DNA of 64,000 nucleotides. It comes from Escherichia phage SUT_E420. Within the stretch, counting starts at the first letter, position 1; each line of letters begins with the position of its first letter. Both the position numbers and the translations under genes were made by a program. Location of the stretch: the sequence record OQ990039. One strand, 5' to 3'. Below, one piece after another: positions 7,994 to 36,519 of the stretch. The notes under the pieces are model-generated. The model was not told the origin of the DNA and did no database searches. It worked only from the letters and a program-made list of their open reading frames with translations.

Positions 7994-8022
7994 ATTATAC
8001 AGAATTTATAAGCATTTAGCAA
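7994..8022 (-). promoter_or_regulatory. sigma70-type early promoter (minus): -35 TTGCTA, 17-bp spacer, -10 TATAAT
   Basis: Plus strand ATTATA-N17-TAGCAA; transcribes leftward into the 790-bp non-coding region 7197-7993. Confidence 0.7.
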
Positions 8023-8030
8023 ATGAATTT

Positions 8031-8465
8031 TTAGAAAAATTCACTAGCAATCAAAGCAGTTGTTTTACCGTCATAACGTCCGGGAAATTCTGCCTTAATA
8101 GTTTTCATTAATAGAGCTTTGGTAATACCTGGGTTTAATTTAACCAGTTCTGCAAAATACTCACGAATCTGAACCTCAGTCAGTTGACTTGGCTGATACT
8201 CTTGCAGCATGGAATAAAGCAGTTGCTCATAGTCTACATCAGTAGGAACTTCCATACCAACTTTAATAGCGCGTTGTTTTGCATTTTCTAGAGCCTTAAT
8301 CTGAGCTTTCAGATAGGCTACGAACTCGGTTCGAGTAACAATGTCTTTATCAATACGTTGCAGATCACCAATCATGGTCTGAAGATTAAGTGCCCGTTCC
8401 TTATCACCGTGAGTACGTGCTAGACTAAGTAGTCCACGAAGGGTCATTAGAATATTTTCACCCAT
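8031..8465 (-). CDS. hypothetical protein (144 aa)
   Basis: ORF in track; start overlaps the stop of the upstream small ORF (TAATG); no motif. Confidence 0.45.
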   Translation of the reverse strand: MGENILMTLRGLLSLARTHGDKERALNLQTMIGDLQRIDKDIVTRTEFVAYLKAQIKALENAKQRAIKVGMEVPTDVDYEQLLYSMLQEYQPSQLTEVQIREYFAELVKLNPGITKALLMKTIKAEFPGRYDGKTTALIASEFF

Positions 8466-31591: not shown

Positions 31592-31900
31592 ATGAGCGAA
31601 CAGGTAAATCAAAACTATGAAGGACACGTTGATGACCAGTCCATCATACTTTGGGAGAAGGAGGGGGAACAAGTAAGATTAACAGTATCTGAATTTCGTG
31701 GGAATCTATACATGGGTATTCGTTACTGGCTTCTTGATATTAATGATGAATGGTTTCCAACGAAATCTGGCTTCTCTTTTCCTTACACCCTAGAAACAAC
31801 ATCACAGCTTTTCTATGCGTTTACACAGATTCTTAGCGAATCTGAGGTTTTACATGAAGTACAGAAACGAGCTGAAGAACTCAAAGCCAAGAATGCCTAG
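31592..31900 (+). CDS. PC4-like ssDNA-binding protein (102 aa)
   Basis: VRLTVSEFRGNLYMGIRYWLLDINDEWFPTKSGFSF resembles the PC4/Sub1 C-terminal ssDNA-binding fold. Confidence 0.45.
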   Translation: MSEQVNQNYEGHVDDQSIILWEKEGEQVRLTVSEFRGNLYMGIRYWLLDINDEWFPTKSGFSFPYTLETTSQLFYAFTQILSESEVLHEVQKRAEELKAKNA

Positions 31901-31917
31901 TTCTTGGCTTTTTCTTT
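31884..31917 (+). terminator. rho-independent terminator (10-bp stem)
   Basis: AAGCCAAGAA/TTCTTGGCTT stem with 7-nt loop, followed by TTTCTTT; overlaps the stop codon of the PC4-like gene. Confidence 0.6.
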
Positions 31918-31927
31918 ATAAATGTAT

Positions 31928-31956
31928 TTGCTTTCAACTCAGTTTTGTTATATAAT
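31928..31956 (+). promoter_or_regulatory. sigma70-type early promoter (plus): -35 TTGCTT, 17-bp spacer, -10 TATAAT
   Basis: Followed by the family leader ATTTATATAAATTAATGAGAGGG. Confidence 0.7.
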
Positions 31957-31986
31957 ATTTATATAAATTAATGAGAGGGTTGCAAA

Positions 31987-32259
31987 GTGAAAAAGATAAG
32001 TATAAGTACACTTAAACCTTTCCCGTACATCGGACAGCCTCTTATACTTATGTGGGAGGGGAAGATTAATGGAGAAAAGTATACTAAAACTAGAAGTGGG
32101 TATAAGCTGATTTCACTTCATTACGAAAAAGAAGTATTAGTAGCTGAAATATACTCTCCGTTGTCAGATAGGCTAGTAAAAACTACATATTTGCATCTTT
32201 GCAAAAATTATACATGGCACGGATCCACTAGACAACCCACATACTATGAGGCAGAATAA
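31987..32259 (+). CDS. hypothetical protein (90 aa, GTG start)
   Basis: GTG start with ribosome-binding site GAGAGGG; directly upstream of the ligase N-terminal ORF. Confidence 0.4.
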   Translation: MKKISISTLKPFPYIGQPLILMWEGKINGEKYTKTRSGYKLISLHYEKEVLVAEIYSPLSDRLVKTTYLHLCKNYTWHGSTRQPTYYEAE

Positions 32260-33231
32260 ATGACCAATGTAAAAGACTTTATTAAACGTTGCCAAGAAGC
32301 ATATTATCAAGGTATGTCTTTAATCTCTGATGAAGAGTATGATTGCCTGGTAAAACGCTTTCCGTTAGAAGAAGAGATCGGACCTAAGGGCGATATTCCA
32401 CATCTGTATCGTATGTATTCTTTACAGAAAGTTTATTATAATCGTGGAGATAAACCTCCGTTTAACCCGTTAGGTCAAGTAGAAACTGATAAGTTAGATG
32501 GTTGTGCAATTTCTCTGTTATATATTAATGGCGAATTTGTTCAAGCACTAACTCGTGGTAATGGTATTCTAGGGAATGATGTCACAAGCAACGTAAGATT
32601 GCTGAATATCCCTAAAAAGATTTCCCAAAAAGTACCTACTCAAATCACTGGTGAAGTTCTAATTACAAAAGAAGTAGAAAATAAACGTAACTTTGCCTCT
32701 GGTGCTATTAACCTCAAAGATAGTGATGATTTTGTACAACGTATCGGAGAAGGTGGTTTAATCTTCGTTGCATATGGTATCCAGTGTTCTGCTGAATCTG
32801 TAGGTATTACAGAAGCATATTTAAAAGATATGCTTTGGCTGGAGAATGAGAACTTCTTAACAGTTGTTAATGTGCGTTCCTTCTTTAAATGGATTCCGAC
32901 GGATGGTAAAGTTGTTCGTATTAATGACAACAACAAATTCTTCCGTGAAGGCTGGACTAATAAATTCCCTCGTGGAGCATTCGCTATTAAAGAGGATGAA
33001 GAAGGCGAGGTTACAACTCTTACTAAAGTTGAATGGCAGGTAGGGGCTTCTGGTAAAGTAACTCCAGTTGGTTATTTCGAACCGGTAATTATTGATGATG
33101 CTACAATTGTTAAAGCGACTCTTAATAACGTTGATTATATTAACTCTCTTGATCTAGAGATCGGTTGCCAGATTCGAGTGATTCGTGCTGGTGGTGTAAT
33201 CCCGTGCATAGTAGAGCGAGTATACGAGTAA
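32260..33231 (+). CDS. NAD-dependent DNA ligase, N-terminal part (adenylation domain)
   Basis: 323 aa; nucleotidyltransferase motif I KLDG (VETDKLDGCAISLLY) and LigA-like Ia region. Confidence 0.7.
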   Translation: MTNVKDFIKRCQEAYYQGMSLISDEEYDCLVKRFPLEEEIGPKGDIPHLYRMYSLQKVYYNRGDKPPFNPLGQVETDKLDGCAISLLYINGEFVQALTRGNGILGNDVTSNVRLLNIPKKISQKVPTQITGEVLITKEVENKRNFASGAINLKDSDDFVQRIGEGGLIFVAYGIQCSAESVGITEAYLKDMLWLENENFLTVVNVRSFFKWIPTDGKVVRINDNNKFFREGWTNKFPRGAFAIKEDEEGEVTTLTKVEWQVGASGKVTPVGYFEPVIIDDATIVKATLNNVDYINSLDLEIGCQIRVIRAGGVIPCIVERVYE

Positions 33232-33282
33232 TACATAACCCTTTGCTACCCATCTACCATATCGGAATTATAAAGTGGTTAT

Positions 33283-33310
33283 TGACATTTTCGCCGCTTA
33301 GGTATATACT
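33283..33310 (+). promoter_or_regulatory. sigma70-type promoter (plus): -35 TTGACA, 16-bp spacer, -10 TATACT
   Basis: In the spacer between the ligase halves; shares TTGACATTTTCGC with the promoter at 4125. Confidence 0.5.
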
Positions 33311-33374
33311 AGTATCATTCAGTTGAGGGATAGAAAGTTATGGCGAGGGTAAGCAAAGTTAGTTAAAATTGTAG

Positions 33375-33403
33375 TTGCTAAATGCTTAAATACTTGCTAT
33401 AAT
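33375..33403 (+). promoter_or_regulatory. sigma70-type early promoter (plus): -35 TTGCTA, 17-bp spacer, -10 TATAAT
   Basis: Directly upstream of the ligase C-terminal ORF with the family leader. Confidence 0.7.
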
Positions 33404-33433
33404 ATTTATATAAATTGATAAGGAAGAAATTTG

Positions 33434-34204
33434 ATGAAAATCGAAATTCCAACACAATGTCCCTCTTGTGGTTCTAAGCTAGATCTTGTCAACGGACAAT
33501 TATTTTGTCGGAATAAGTCCAACTGTCCAGCGCAATCAAGTAAGTTAATTGAGAACTTCTGTACAAAAATGAAGTTAAAGGGTTTTGGTCCAAAAACTAT
33601 TGAGAAGCTGGAGCTGACGAAGATTTCAGAACTATTTTACCTAACCGAAGAAGATTTGGTTAGAGCCGTGGGTAGCAAGGTTGCCGCTAAGTTAATTAGC
33701 GAATTAAATACTAAAGTTCGCGGAGACATTGACTTTGGTTCAGTTCTCGGTTCTTTAGGAATCCCTCTAATTGGAGAGGTTGCAGCAAAGAAATTATCCC
33801 AAAATTGCACTAGCTTCCACGATGTGAAGGCTGACGGCAAGGCTGGAGAAAATTATAAAGCCTGGCTAAATTCCCCACAAGGCAAGGATGTTATCGAATT
33901 ACCGTGGAAATTCTCAACTGGTGCTAAAGCTAAAACCGTCGTTACTGATGATTTAGTTGCCCAGCCAAATGGAATCGCGGTATGTATTACCGGATCTTTG
34001 CAAGACTTTGCAAATCGAACGGATGCAACAAACTATTTAGAAGGTCTAGGATATACGGTTAAGAAATCTGTTACCAAAGACGTCAAATACCTAATCTGTG
34101 AGGATGAATCGAAGCGTTCTTCCTCATCTTATAAGAAAGCCGAAACGAATGGGATAGAAATCCTGTCGATTAAAGAACTATTGGAGAAAAATAATAATGT
34201 CTAA
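33434..34204 (+). CDS. NAD-dependent DNA ligase, C-terminal part (Zn finger, HhH, BRCT)
   Basis: Cys4 Zn finger (CPSCGSKLD...CRNKSNC), helix-hairpin-helix region, BRCT-like C-terminus (IAVCITGSL...YLICED). Confidence 0.7.
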   Translation: MKIEIPTQCPSCGSKLDLVNGQLFCRNKSNCPAQSSKLIENFCTKMKLKGFGPKTIEKLELTKISELFYLTEEDLVRAVGSKVAAKLISELNTKVRGDIDFGSVLGSLGIPLIGEVAAKKLSQNCTSFHDVKADGKAGENYKAWLNSPQGKDVIELPWKFSTGAKAKTVVTDDLVAQPNGIAVCITGSLQDFANRTDATNYLEGLGYTVKKSVTKDVKYLICEDESKRSSSSYKKAETNGIEILSIKELLEKNNNV

Positions 34205-34964
34205 ACTGAACTGGAACGTAGAAGGTGTAACCGAGTCTCTGAAAGCAAAAGCCACTGCTCTGGGTGTTTCTGTAATCTCTCAAGAACAAGTAGCCGCTAT
34301 CGCCGCTGAACTGGCTGCTGAAACTGGCAAAGATGTTACCGCTCGCTCTGTTGGCTCTAAACTGCGTAAAGAAGGTTTTGAAGTACAGAAAGCTAACGAA
34401 GTACAGAAATCCCCGTGGACTCCTGAGCAGGAAGCTGAACTGGTTGATTTCCTGAACGCTCATGCTGGTCAGTATACCTATGCTGAAATCGCTGCTGCTG
34501 TAGCTGGTGGTCAGTTCGGTGCTAAGCAGGTACAGGGTAAGATTCTGAGCCTGGAAATGACCGCTTCTGTTAAACCAACTGAAAAAGCTGCTGCTGTTCG
34601 TTCCTTTACTCCGGATGAAGAAACTGATTTTGTTAATCAGGTTGTTGCTGGTGCTACTATTGAAGCTATCGCTGCTCACTTCGGTCGCAATATTAAGCAG
34701 ATCCGTGGTAAAGCTCTGAGTCTGCTTCGTGAAGGTCGTATCGCTGCTATGCCGGTACAGGAAACCTCAAGTGCTAAAACTCGTGAAGATCTGTTAGAAG
34801 GTCTGGATCTGGTTAACATGACTGTTGCTGAGATCGCTGAGAAAACTGGTAAATCTGAGCGCGGTGTTAAATCTATGCTGTCTCGTCGTGGTCTGGTTGC
34901 TAAGGACTATGATGGTGCCGCTAAGCGTGCTAAACTGGATGCAAAAGCTGCGGCTGCTGAATAA
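34197..34964 (+). CDS. abundant-type protein with 3-4 tandem HTH-like repeats, putative DNA-binding protein (255 aa)
   Basis: Internal repeats (...ARSVGSKLRKEGF / ...AKQVQGKILSL / ...IKQIRGKALSLLREG / ...ERGVKSMLSRRGL); strong high-expression codon bias. Confidence 0.5.
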   Translation: MSKLNWNVEGVTESLKAKATALGVSVISQEQVAAIAAELAAETGKDVTARSVGSKLRKEGFEVQKANEVQKSPWTPEQEAELVDFLNAHAGQYTYAEIAAAVAGGQFGAKQVQGKILSLEMTASVKPTEKAAAVRSFTPDEETDFVNQVVAGATIEAIAAHFGRNIKQIRGKALSLLREGRIAAMPVQETSSAKTREDLLEGLDLVNMTVAEIAEKTGKSERGVKSMLSRRGLVAKDYDGAAKRAKLDAKAAAAE

Positions 34965-34981
34965 TCTGGTAAATTAAACCT

Positions 34982-35018
34982 AAGGGGAGGGGGCTATGCT
35001 CCTTCCCCTTTTTGCATT
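34982..35018 (+). terminator. rho-independent terminator
   Basis: Stem AAGGGGA/TCCCCTT followed by TTTGCATTT, immediately after gene 34197-34964. Confidence 0.5.
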
Positions 35019-35046
35019 TAGAAGGCACGAAAGCGTGCAAAGGAGA

Positions 35047-36519
35047 ATGACCTTGTTTAACGTGCAAGCTGTAGTGTTGAAGATGCTTCTAGCTTCCGAA
35101 CAGAAGCAAATAGCATTGGAAACATTCTCAAAACTGCATAAAGATCATTTTAATGACGCTTTCTCCTCAATTTACCAAGCCGTCCAGAATTATTATAAAA
35201 AATATAACACAATGCCGTCCATTGACGCACTTATGCTTGAAGCTAATAGGAACGCCCGCCTTTCTCAAGCCCTAGTCGTCTTAGCTAACACTCAAATTCC
35301 AGAAGTGAGCATGGAACAGGCACTTGAAGTCCTAGAGGCCGAGTATACACAGGATTTATTCCTGAAGCTTCTAGAAACAGACGTGCTTCAAGATTTAACA
35401 ATGCTGGATCAGGGAGAAATTCTCAACCGAGTTGCCTCCCTTCACTTAAAATTAGAAGAGAAAGTAACGAATACTGGAAAAGTATTCAACGCAGATAACA
35501 TGCGTATTTTCCAGAGAGAAGAAGATACCAAACTGAACTTAATCGCTCTTGGTATTTGTAATGAGTTCGATGCTCAAATTGGTTTAGCTCGCACAGAAAC
35601 GTTACTGCTTGGTGGTTGGCGTGGTACTGGTAAATCCATTATCTGTTCAAACATACAGGTTCAGCAATATTTGAATGGAGATATTGCTCCATACTTCTCA
35701 ATTGAGATGAAAGAACATGAAGTATTTAGACGTAATCTAGCCATGTTAGCCGGGGTATCAGCACTAGCAATGCGTAATAATACTCTAGAAGGTGCAGCTC
35801 TATTGAGATTAGCCAGAACTAGAGCTAGAATGTTCAACGGGGGTGAAGAGCTTTTCGATAACTTCGTTAAACAGTATACAATGGCTAAGATGAGTGATTT
35901 CTACGATATGGAGAGTAAGCTAATAGAGGGGTATGAACTACATACTCCTATGATTATCGTTTATGACCCTGAACTGTCCATTACAACAGTTGACGTAGAA
36001 TTAAATAAATTAGTTGCTAGATATGGTGATAAAGTTACAGTAGCTTTACTGGACTATATTAACCAAACCCGACTTCCAGATTCTAAAACCATTGATATGT
36101 ATGACTGGAAGGAACAGATGGTTGTTAGCTCGTCTTTCAAATCCATCTGCCAGAAACATAACGTGGCTGGCGTAGCTCCCTACCAGATCGATCAAGATGG
36201 TAGAACACGTATGTCAAAGGGGATTCTTGATTCCGCAGACATGGCTGCTAATCTTAATGCTGCTAAAGCTGATAATGGTCAAGGTGCTATTATGTTTGAC
36301 TTTGTTAAGACTCGTTCTTCTGATAGCGTGAAGTTTATGCCTAAAATGAATTGGGAAACTCTGCGAATGGATAATACTACCAACCTAGCAATGGAAGATA
36401 TATCTCAAATGGAAGCTGAGTTCGTTATCCCTATTGAGAAGGATAAGCCGGCTCAACCTAAACGTGCTAAGAAAGACAAAACTGAAAATTCAACAGGTGA
36501 ACAGGCCAGCGATATATGA
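35047..36519 (+). CDS. DnaB-like replicative helicase (about 490 aa)
   Basis: Walker A GGWRGTGKS, DnaB-type SIEM motif, Walker B-like MIIVYD; start set at ATG 35047 (ribosome-binding site AAAGGAGA); the track start 34996 lies inside the terminator hairpin. Confidence 0.6.
   Translation: MTLFNVQAVVLKMLLASEQKQIALETFSKLHKDHFNDAFSSIYQAVQNYYKKYNTMPSIDALMLEANRNARLSQALVVLANTQIPEVSMEQALEVLEAEYTQDLFLKLLETDVLQDLTMLDQGEILNRVASLHLKLEEKVTNTGKVFNADNMRIFQREEDTKLNLIALGICNEFDAQIGLARTETLLLGGWRGTGKSIICSNIQVQQYLNGDIAPYFSIEMKEHEVFRRNLAMLAGVSALAMRNNTLEGAALLRLARTRARMFNGGEELFDNFVKQYTMAKMSDFYDMESKLIEGYELHTPMIIVYDPELSITTVDVELNKLVARYGDKVTVALLDYINQTRLPDSKTIDMYDWKEQMVVSSSFKSICQKHNVAGVAPYQIDQDGRTRMSKGILDSADMAANLNAAKADNGQGAIMFDFVKTRSSDSVKFMPKMNWETLRMDNTTNLAMEDISQMEAEFVIPIEKDKPAQPKRAKKDKTENSTGEQASDI

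Follow-up and report, generated by a model that had tools for sequence, protein, structure and literature searches.

The two-gene NAD+-dependent DNA ligase of a T5-type phage: anatomy and conservation of the ligA/ligB split and of its promoter-bearing spacer

The DNA of record OQ990039 (Escherichia phage SUT_E420), from which a window of 64,000 nucleotides was analyzed, is that of a T5-type phage; the 2.4-kb region used for searching is 100% identical to phage T5_ev212. As an earlier note on this DNA had described, and as the coordinates in Table 1 confirm, an NAD-dependent DNA ligase is encoded there by two open reading frames, ligA and ligB, separated by a spacer of about 200 bp that carries two promoters. 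The spacer contains stop codons in all three frames and the ligB reading frame is shifted by +1 relative to that of ligA, with an in-frame TTG at 33431, just upstream of the ligB ATG. The genes follow one another in the order PC4-like T5.115, an ORF, ligA, ligB, D5, DnaB-like helicase and primase, which matches the T5-type order. The additional ORF (ORF90) gave no match in a Pfam search. The “family” promoter preceding it has an equivalent in the T5 reference, located directly 5′ of ligA, where NC_005859 also has a promoter annotation. Given that the start codon of D5 overlaps the stop codon of ligB, D5 would be co-transcribed with ligB, and translational coupling between them is probable.

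Table 1. Features of the ligase locus and its flanks (positions in the window).
Feature	Position	Strand	Remarks
Terminator-like hairpin	31883–31911	+	12-bp stem followed by a T-run; ends the upstream transcription unit
“Family” promoter 5′ of ORF90 and ligA	31925–31956	+	−10 TATAAT at 31951–31956
ORF90 (90 aa)	31987–32259	+	Abuts ligA; not in the T5 reference genome
ligA, catalytic subunit (323 aa)	32260–33231	+	Candidate domain Ia, NTase (KLDG, K78) and OB; ligA in LR597659 and NC_005859
Intergenic spacer (202 bp)	33232–33433	+	At the OB/Zn-finger linker; at least 95% identity in 433 phage records
Promoter P-K28b	33262–33336	+	TTGACA 33282–33287, N17, TATACT 33305–33310; 11/12; conserved in IME260
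Mini-ORF MARVSKVS*	33340–33366	+	8 codons; GAGGG Shine-Dalgarno-like element 5′ of the ORF
Promoter P-K28a	33355–33429	+	TTGCTA 33375–33380, N17, TATAAT 33398–33403; 10/12; TG extended −10
ligB ribosome-binding site AAGGAAG	33420–33426	+	7 nt 5′ of the ATG; read from the sequence
ligB, DNA-binding subunit (256 aa)	33434–34204	+	Cys4 Zn finger, HhH and BRCT; also annotated ligB
D5 DNA-binding protein gene	34197–34964	+	ATG overlaps the ligB stop by 8 nt
Terminator-like hairpin	34982–35010	+	13-bp stem with 8 GC pairs, then a T-run; ends the ligB-D5 transcription unit

This two-gene ligase and both spacer promoters are already known from the T5 reference annotation: NC_005859 includes ligA, ligB, “promoter P-K 28b” and “promoter P-K 28a”. 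The promoter names used here were mapped across from it by offset, and the promoter calls combine consensus matches with database annotation. A 2013 paper gives ligA (AAU05253) and ligB (AAU05254) as subunits (PMC3632103), and so does a 2017 genome table (PMC5519627). Literature searches on T5 ligase biochemistry returned annotation-level mentions only, with no assay of T5 LigA/LigB, and a full-text search for the names PK28a and PK28b gave nothing relevant beyond mentions of that kind. Compared with T5 (ligA T5.116, ligB T5.117; NC_005859, AY692264), the locus is the same, with protein identities of 98.8% for LigA and 96.9% for LigB and a 202-bp spacer that is 99% identical and retains both annotated promoters. 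The differences are ORF90, which lies between ligA and its upstream promoter in phages of the T5_ev212, EC148 and SUT_E1520 type, a ligB that is three codons shorter, and a single base directly past the −10 element of P-K28b. The feature is therefore real and very likely functional; as submitted, it is of little import, the pair and its promoters having been annotated and an orthologous two-chain structure deposited.

The separation of an adenylation part (KxDG) from a Zn-finger/HhH/BRCT part near the OB/Zn-finger boundary, proposed from the letters alone, is borne out by Pfam and by alignments. LigA matches DNA_ligase_aden (PF01653, E=2.2e-23, 83.5 bits against a cut-off of 27) and DNA_ligase_OB (PF03120, E=3.1e-22, 78.7 bits against a cut-off of 32.9), and its motif I, KLDG with the lysine at K78, is invariant among 11 phages. 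A candidate domain Ia is suggested by the alignment of LigA 4–42 with 1V9P 13–52 through the motif YY...ISD.EYD, which is kept across the phage family, this segment alone not being significant. LigB matches BRCT in Pfam (E=8.9e-8), with weak HhH matches below the Pfam cut-offs, and aligns over residues 3–248 with 1DGS 400–653; its Cys4 zinc-finger residues (C9, C12, C25 and C31) are invariant. Every catalytic and zinc-binding motif is intact. Since LigA 214–320 aligns with residues 284–390 of E. coli LigA (2OWO) and LigB 3–122 with residues 402–529 of the same protein, the cut affects only the linker. A single-sequence AF2 model of LigB, meant for a PDB fold search, was unusable (pLDDT 36.8).

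Single-chain bacterial LigA, represented by 2OWO of E. coli and 1DGS/1V9P of T. filiformis, has in common with the T5-type pair the KxDG lysine, the Cys4 motif and the domain succession Ia-NTase-OB-Zn-HhH-BRCT, in which Ia is a candidate for the phage protein. The sequences resemble each other little (E=1e-26 for LigA, 1e-9 to 1e-10 for LigB), and the bacterial enzyme is a single chain of about 670 aa, against 579 aa for both T5 chains together. With two ORFs that lie 202 bp apart and differ in frame, the locus departs from the one-polypeptide layout of the LigA family; the two-polypeptide layout is a known exception, and membership in the family stands.

The two best promoter matches within 31800–35100 both fall inside the spacer, and they represent predicted strong sigma-70 promoters. 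The one claimed by the earlier note as TTGACA-N16-TATACT is present, but its spacing is N17. Both P-K28b and P-K28a are kept in IME260, where the synonymous sites of the genes are saturated, and the tandem architecture is kept in seven lineages. Among non-redundant split loci, 27 of 31 have a promoter match scoring 10/12 or better upstream of ligB; near-consensus promoters were found at this place in 19/21 loci as against 16/79 of the remaining intergenic gaps in these loci (Fisher p=4e-9, a value that overstates independence because the loci are related to each other). On these consensus matches, the split family in general has a predicted near-consensus promoter directly 5′ of ligB.

The break itself is a deeply conserved character. 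Its position is identical in eight genera, all 80 loci found in IMG/VR are split, and so are 11 and 21 further loci, with T5-type neighbor genes detectable in 31 of these 32. Here, as fits the split family, LigA stops shortly past GG(V/I)IP, and the first CPxC follows within a few residues of the LigB start. Every locus that covers both halves has ligA and ligB side by side and in unchanged order. The split is a hallmark of a very large T5-like clade, both cultured and uncultured. These observations bear directly on the suggestion, also made in the earlier note, that the gene was disrupted by an insertion; the halves would then be a pseudogene pair in decay, and the phage would lean on the LigA of its host. 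The non-coding DNA between the halves, with stops in all frames, and the existence of unsplit relatives would agree with such damage. Nevertheless, the same OB/Zn linker break is kept in all examined T5-like loci with both halves (more than 110), down to about 40% identity, and these loci are free of frameshifts and internal stops; the dN/dS values of 0.03–0.25 in both ligA and ligB indicate that both halves evolve under purifying selection; ligB has its own ribosome-binding site, ATG and promoters; and neither the catalytic lysine nor the Cys4 motif has been lost. Decay into a pseudogene pair is consequently very improbable, and the conservation data can be taken as effectively refuting it.

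The gap between the two genes, on the other hand, ranges from 55 to 1,359 bp, with contents that are unrelated between lineages. Relatives carry variable cargo there, including GIY-YIG homing endonucleases, which occur only in Salmonella phage SP3 (locus L037) and in locus L072; of 437 records that match the gap region of SP3, 3 have an endonuclease. Searches of the gaps of the Vibrio, Erwinia and Epseptimavirus relatives with Pfam and PHROGs revealed no homing endonuclease, the sole named match being a DprA-like protein in Thalassavirus.

Single uninterrupted ligases, which in the earlier note would count against its reading if the spacer were an obvious indel or frameshift beside them, do exist at the equivalent genomic position: a few distant, uncultured T5-like phages encode unsplit forms of about 560 aa (555–578 aa). 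They are only 35–41% identical in the ligB-equivalent part. In a concatenated tree with bootstraps, eight of the ten unsplit forms lie near the base, with weak support, the deep nodes being weak as well, and the compact single-chain and split forms make up one clade (99% bootstrap); a neighbor-joining tree of the ligB part alone was star-like and uninformative. The compact single-chain ligases (P0031, P0099, P0117 and others) thus belong to the same compact family as the split forms. Three of the four contigs examined carry T5-type neighbors, in varied combinations of T5_A2-like, PC4-like, D5-like, DnaB and primase genes, and for the neighbors on the fourth contig no Pfam families are on record. 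In these ligases, unlike in the split ones, the OB-linker-Zn junction is continuous and a D5-like gene comes next, without a promoter-bearing gap. Promoter-like sites inside the fused ligase genes are compatible with chance. Searches of JGI metagenomes, GTDB genomes and IMG/VR found nothing closely related to the fused form P0031. Altogether, by sequence comparison, the unsplit relatives fit better with an ancient fission than with a recent lesion in T5.

The nearest structural counterpart comes from Providencia phage vB_PreS_PR1, whose two-chain ligase is orthologous (identity of 56% for LigA and 57% for LigB) and which shares the break point, the gene order and the tandem promoters 5′ of ligB; its 192-bp spacer has an annotated terminator as well as a promoter, in contrast to the T5-type spacer, where no terminator-like site was found. 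In the PDB entries 9HU3 and 9I5I, for which our literature search found no paper, chain A carries the label “DNA ligase (NAD+)” and matches T5 LigA at E=3e-103; chain B, which the depositors called “DNA ligase subunit B”, matches T5 LigB at E=1.5e-81 and is 100% identical to the protein of Providencia phages PR1 and PSTCR5. These entries are hard to reconcile with the idea that one ligase chain is restored by recoding, whether by translational bypass, an intron, or protein or RNA trans-splicing over the spacer, since they contain two separate chains. The clean domain boundary is all that speaks for such a restoration. The spacer harbors promoters and several stops per frame, ligB is shifted in frame and has a canonical ribosome-binding site and ATG, the junction is devoid of intein-like sequence, a scan of 33000–33600 gave no Rfam match at E<=1, and the gap varies in length and content between lineages. 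We regard recoding as having almost no likelihood.

It could also be conceived that LigA works as a ligase by itself, as minimal NTase-OB ligases do, and that LigB is an independent DNA-binding protein acting with D5. The organization of the locus lends some credit to this: ligB has two promoters of its own, its stop overlaps the start of D5, and ligB-D5 adjacency is found in essentially all loci reaching far enough. In addition, gaps of up to 1.4 kb occupied by unrelated genes imply that transcriptional linkage between ligA and ligB is not always tight. However, nick joining by E. coli LigA needs the HhH domain, the PR1 chains share PDB entries in which the second was deposited as a ligase subunit, and the two genes stay adjacent and in the same order in all loci covering both. 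Likewise, the zinc-finger cysteines and the HhH and BRCT cores of LigB are invariant across genera, and the fused forms at the equivalent position show that both parts work as one enzyme in relatives. An autonomous LigA is, on balance, improbable.

We therefore hold with considerable confidence that LigA and LigB are two subunits of one NAD+-dependent DNA ligase and that the spacer is a regulatory region. A functional two-subunit ligase was the other possibility raised by the earlier note, and it is the one favored by the conserved break, the purifying selection and the joint presence of the PR1 chains in the PDB entries. LigA would provide the chemistry, with domain Ia for NAD+, the NTase domain with the adenylated K78, and then the OB fold, while LigB would bring the Zn finger, HhH and BRCT domains that in single-chain LigA form the clamp on nicked DNA. 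A stop, an intergenic stretch and a second start codon would have taken the place of the covalent OB-Zn linker without the loss of any residue, so that LigA and LigB must associate non-covalently, presumably as a heterodimer that seals nicks in T5. The spacer, with its tandem early promoters P-K28b and P-K28a, would be the regulatory part of this arrangement. As no terminator follows ligA, ligB and D5 would receive read-through plus the output of two strong extra promoters, up to the hairpin downstream of D5, and the two promoters would be expected to lift the output of LigB and D5 above that of LigA.

A further step, taking the fission as an adaptive regulatory device and not a neutral accident, by which the level or timing of LigB and D5 is set apart from that of LigA, is speculative and in our estimation rather unlikely. 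Under it, the ligase gene would have received a strong early promoter, or in T5 a tandem pair, at the OB/Zn linker, subunit stoichiometry would set ligase activity, LigB might hold a ligase-independent role with D5, and the rare unsplit relatives would represent an ancestral or reverted state. The packaged DNA of T5 carries site-specific nicks that must remain unsealed; if true, regulatory fission could matter for a phage of this kind. Control of ligB-D5 expression, tolerance of mobile cargo in the gap and historical contingency are all candidate reasons for the split, and the locus is a natural and clean case in which to ask why an enzyme stays in two pieces. The T5-type enzyme is also a candidate natural “split” ligase for engineering.

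The two-subunit ligase recalls the “genes in pieces” of T4-like phages, such as nrdA of Aeromonas phage Aeh1, split by the homing endonuclease mobE, and the T4 topoisomerase genes 39 and 60. In both situations the gene of an essential enzyme of DNA metabolism is divided between domains, and the products of the two resulting genes come together again or, for the T5-type ligase, would do so; some relatives (SP3, L072) even have a free-standing GIY-YIG homing endonuclease in the gap. The present gap differs in that it holds promoters and an 8-codon ORF in place of an endonuclease gene, endonucleases being rare and sporadic between ligA and ligB.

Some minor elements of the spacer deserve mention. 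The 8-codon mini-ORF reported previously is present, but it is probably not a gene: as a conserved micro-gene it was rejected, the ATG and the frame being lost in IME260, and relatives having some 2 to 9 codons or none. The P-K28b leader of T5 has an unusually stable fold (z=-3.7); a conserved RNA structure was nonetheless discarded, as RNAalifold gave no consensus and the folds differ among genera. The identity claimed between the −35 region of P-K28b and a promoter at 4125 is real and extends over the 13-mer TTGACATTTTCGC, which occurs at 4125 and 33282 only (0.14 expected); the similarity ends at these 13 nt, and a mobile “promoter cassette” was accordingly rejected. Finally, a search allowing up to three mismatches gave 15 matches to the “family” −10 and leader motif TATAATATTTATATAAATT, against 0.17 expected.

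The two-gene ligase of this phage is the ligA/ligB pair of T5, already known together with the spacer promoters P-K28b and P-K28a, and the present analysis makes modest additions to it: the gap promoter and the gap cargo across relatives, and relatives with an unsplit ligase at this genomic position. Across the 2.4-kb region searched, Escherichia phages T5_ev212, EC148 and SUT_E1520 are 100% identical to the window, and coverage of this query is 80% or more in 428 phage records. The T5 reference genome (NC_005859) annotates the genes as T5.116 and T5.117 and the spacer with 'promoter P-K 28b' and 'promoter P-K 28a', which map by offset to window 33262-33336 and 33355-33429 and each cover one hexamer pair; both genes were also tabulated in a 2017 T5-like genome paper (PMC5519627). 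Furthermore, PDB entries 9HU3 and 9I5I contain two chains, a 339-aa 'DNA ligase (NAD(+))' (chain A, matching T5 LigA at E=3e-103) and a 248-aa 'DNA ligase subunit B' (chain B, matching T5 LigB at E=1.5e-81), the latter 100% identical to Providencia phages vB_PreS_PR1 and PSTCR5, both of the T5 family. In our literature search, neither a publication behind these entries nor a biochemical characterization of the T5 ligase turned up.

The earlier observation holds up, apart from small corrections. The two ligase ORFs that it had placed at 32260-34204 are borne out by ORF calls and Pfam domains: ligA carries the NAD-dependent ligase adenylation domain (E=2e-23), with the motif I lysine at K78 within KLDG, and the ligase OB fold (E=3e-22), while ligB, in which an in-frame TTG precedes the ATG by one codon, has four cysteines near its N-terminus (positions 9, 12, 25, 31), weak HhH matches and a BRCT domain (E=9e-8). 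In alignments to solved full-length ligases, LigA residues 214-320 match E. coli LigA 284-390, and LigB residues 3-122 and 3-248 match E. coli LigA 402-529 and T. filiformis LigA 400-653, respectively. Thus the break, rightly assigned to the region of the OB-domain/Zn-finger boundary, falls within the short linker between the two, and no part of the enzyme is missing.

Features of the ligase locus in the window and in related loci
Feature	Sequence	Coordinates	Strand	Remarks
ligA	window	32260-33231	same as ligB	ORF, 323 aa
ligB	window	33434-34204	same as ligA	ORF, 256 aa counted from ATG
Promoter match TTGACA-N17-TATACT	window	33282-33310		11/12
Promoter match TTGCTA-N17-TATAAT	window	33375-33403		10/12, TG extended -10
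Terminator-like hairpin	window	31883-31911		
Terminator-like hairpin	window	34982-35010		
Gap cargo, radical-SAM protein	L049	564-1568		
Gap cargo, DprA-like protein	L002	3127-3687		Thalassavirus
Gap cargo, crAss001_48-like protein	L047	3819-4037		
GIY-YIG homing-endonuclease gene in gap	L037	3684-4340		Salmonella phage SP3, MG387042; close T5 relative
GIY-YIG homing-endonuclease gene in gap	L072	1415-2560		metagenomic locus
Single-chain compact ligase, 555-568 aa	L176	2151-3857		uncultured phage contig
Single-chain compact ligase, 555-568 aa	L177	6001-7674		uncultured phage contig
Single-chain compact ligase, 555-568 aa	L178	4875-6563		uncultured phage contig
Single-chain compact ligase, 555-568 aa	L179	2100-3767		uncultured phage contig

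The spacer measures 202 bp, every frame in it has several stop codons and ligB lies in a different frame from ligA, so that no single frameshift or read-through could join the genes. Recoding of the pair into one chain, contradicted by this content and by the two separate chains of the PDB entries, has a negligible probability.

The split is a property of the whole family. Among the matches listed in a tblastn search with concatenated LigA and LigB, every T5-family record gave two pieces, the most distant being Vibrio phages at 48% identity, and unrelated phages below 30% identity gave one. The break point is uniform in 11 phages from eight genera: the C-terminus of LigA lies just past GG(V/I)IP, and the first CPxC of LigB comes a few residues after its start. 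A LigB profile picked out 80 loci in IMG/VR, every one of them split, and two more scans yielded another 11 and 21 split loci, 31 of these 32 having detectable T5-type neighbours (a homologue of T5.115, the PC4-like gene upstream of ligA in T5; D5, the gene after ligB; or DnaB). The fused matches of these two scans were all distant canonical-length ligases (26-30% identity), beside which none of those three neighbours was detected. Moreover, dN/dS is 0.03-0.17 in close pairs and at most 0.25 wherever dS was measurable, in both halves, which excludes a decaying pseudogene. A pair of pseudogenes, contradicted by conservation and selection alike, is therefore very improbable, and the earlier note's alternative of a gene disrupted by insertion is not borne out in the sense of a damaged gene.

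The gap itself varies from 55 to 1,359 bp. In T5 and Sugarlandvirus it spans about 200 bp without any gene; a single small ORF occupies it in Epseptimavirus smaug, Erwinia KEY and Proteus PM135, and two or three ORFs, one of them DprA-like, in Vibrio phages. The varied cargo (Table) marks the gap as a tolerated insertion site, and the gap contents of relatives showed no sign of an endonuclease as maker of the original cut. The GIY-YIG gene of SP3, labelled hypothetical or ligase in its record, begins at the ligA stop, upstream of both promoters. Such endonuclease genes are rare in the gap: of 437 records that match the gap region of SP3, 3 have its insert.

By consensus matching, the two top sigma-70 sites in 31800-35100 both fall inside the spacer. 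The first is the promoter described earlier, with N17 rather than N16 between its hexamers; a second promoter in the spacer had also been noted. Judged from such matches, a promoter in the gap appears to be the rule: in the 130 nt preceding ligB, the best match scores at least 10/12 in 27 of 31 non-redundant split loci (mean of coding controls, 7.1), and several gaps of only 59-75 bp hold a perfect 12/12. Strong matches occur in 19 of 21 ligB gaps versus 16 of 79 other intergenic gaps of the same loci (Fisher p=4e-9, a value that overstates independence, the loci being mutually related). In T5, IME260, L039, L040, KEY, PR1 and PM135, ligB is preceded by two promoters in tandem, spaced by about 93 bp, with a purine-rich Shine-Dalgarno-like run after each and about two to nine codons, or none, downstream of the first. 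In Klebsiella phage IME260, where synonymous sites of the genes are saturated, the two T5 promoters are conserved, as are the initial ~20 nt of the P-K28b transcript. The 8-codon mini-ORF of the earlier note is present at 33340-33366; its ATG and frame are not conserved in IME260.

The scan of 31800-35100 found no terminator-like site after ligA. The D5 start codon (34197) and the ligB stop (34202-34204) overlap by 8 nt (window 34197-34204, ATGTCTAA), which suggests that D5 translation would be coupled to ligB, and the two genes are adjacent in essentially every split locus extending far enough to show D5. Promoter matches, hairpins and this overlap together delineate a predicted unit of upstream promoter, ORF90, ligA, two extra promoters, ligB, D5 and terminator, in which the two added promoters would lead to stronger transcription of ligB and D5 than of ligA.

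An exhaustive phmmer search with LigB returned 63 cluster representatives at E<1e-30. The best 150 matches are mostly stand-alone proteins of about 250 aa; ten have 555-578 aa, with the LigB match in the C-terminal half and a continuous OB-linker-Zn junction. Recognizable T5-type neighbours were found on three of four such contigs examined: P0099 has a PC4-like gene on one side and, on the other, a 237-aa gene, DnaB and primase; P0031 has a Phage_T5_A2-like gene nearby and a D5 homologue directly downstream (41% identity, E=3e-17); the gene after P0117 encodes a 243-aa protein with the same faint Sigma70_r4_2 match as D5. For the neighbours of P0052, no Pfam family is recorded. On each of the four contigs the next gene adjoins the ligase, leaving no gap and no room for a promoter. 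Uninterrupted relatives, which the earlier note would have counted against its reading if they showed the spacer as an obvious indel or frameshift, do exist at the same genomic position, but the classified T5-family genera are all split and the fused forms distant.

In a bootstrapped NJ tree (concatenated LigA and LigB, 58 sequences, 551 columns), the compact family of 38 split and 10 fused forms is a 99% clade separate from canonical LigA, and the classified T5-family genera, all split, form a 100% clade. Eight fused forms lie near the base with weak support, and two are nested among split forms (73% and 60%). The simplest reading of these sequences would be one early fission with possible re-fusions.

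From the established structure and function of LigA, the phage LigA would perform adenylation and phosphodiester formation, and LigB, associating with it non-covalently, would contribute the Zn/HhH clamp holding the nick in position. That LigB instead has a role of its own is unlikely, given that the two genes strictly co-occur, that fused relatives exist and that both chains are present in the PDB entries.

Other observations concern the surroundings. The P-K28b leader (window 33317-33440) has an unusually stable predicted fold (z=-3.7), for which no conservation was found among the relatives compared. Some relatives (L040 4419-4446; L010 2416-2448) carry an inverted repeat around an A-rich block, its 3' arm on the second promoter's -35 and its arm sequences varying from genus to genus; some other promoters of the recurring T5 'family' type have repeats of this kind too (window about 1847-1900 and about 7999-8050, minus strand). 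The -35 likeness between P-K28b and position 4125 is a real 13-mer but stops after 13 nt; it belongs to a promoter-like TTGACA-N17-TAAAGT (window 4125-4160) upstream of an ORF starting at 4217, in DNA conserved among relatives, and none of the matching records listed annotates a promoter there. ORF90 (window 31987-32259), 90 aa with no Pfam match, lies between a 'family' promoter and ligA, and also occurs in T5_ev212, smaug and oldekolle; the T5 reference lacks it by a clean 273-bp indel and has this promoter immediately in front of ligA.

A 'portal vertex protein' feature underlies the ligase-D5 match in KY677846, NC_047822 (phiLLS) and NC_134262 (vB_Sen-E22). It looks like a propagated annotation error, since in the phiLLS genome table it directly adjoins ligB, where D5 lies (PMC5519627). 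Finally, records named for Campylobacter or Listeria match this Escherichia/Salmonella T5-type region, the spacer of MG065692 (Campylobacter phage C13) being 98% identical, which suggests a mis-assigned host or a contaminant.
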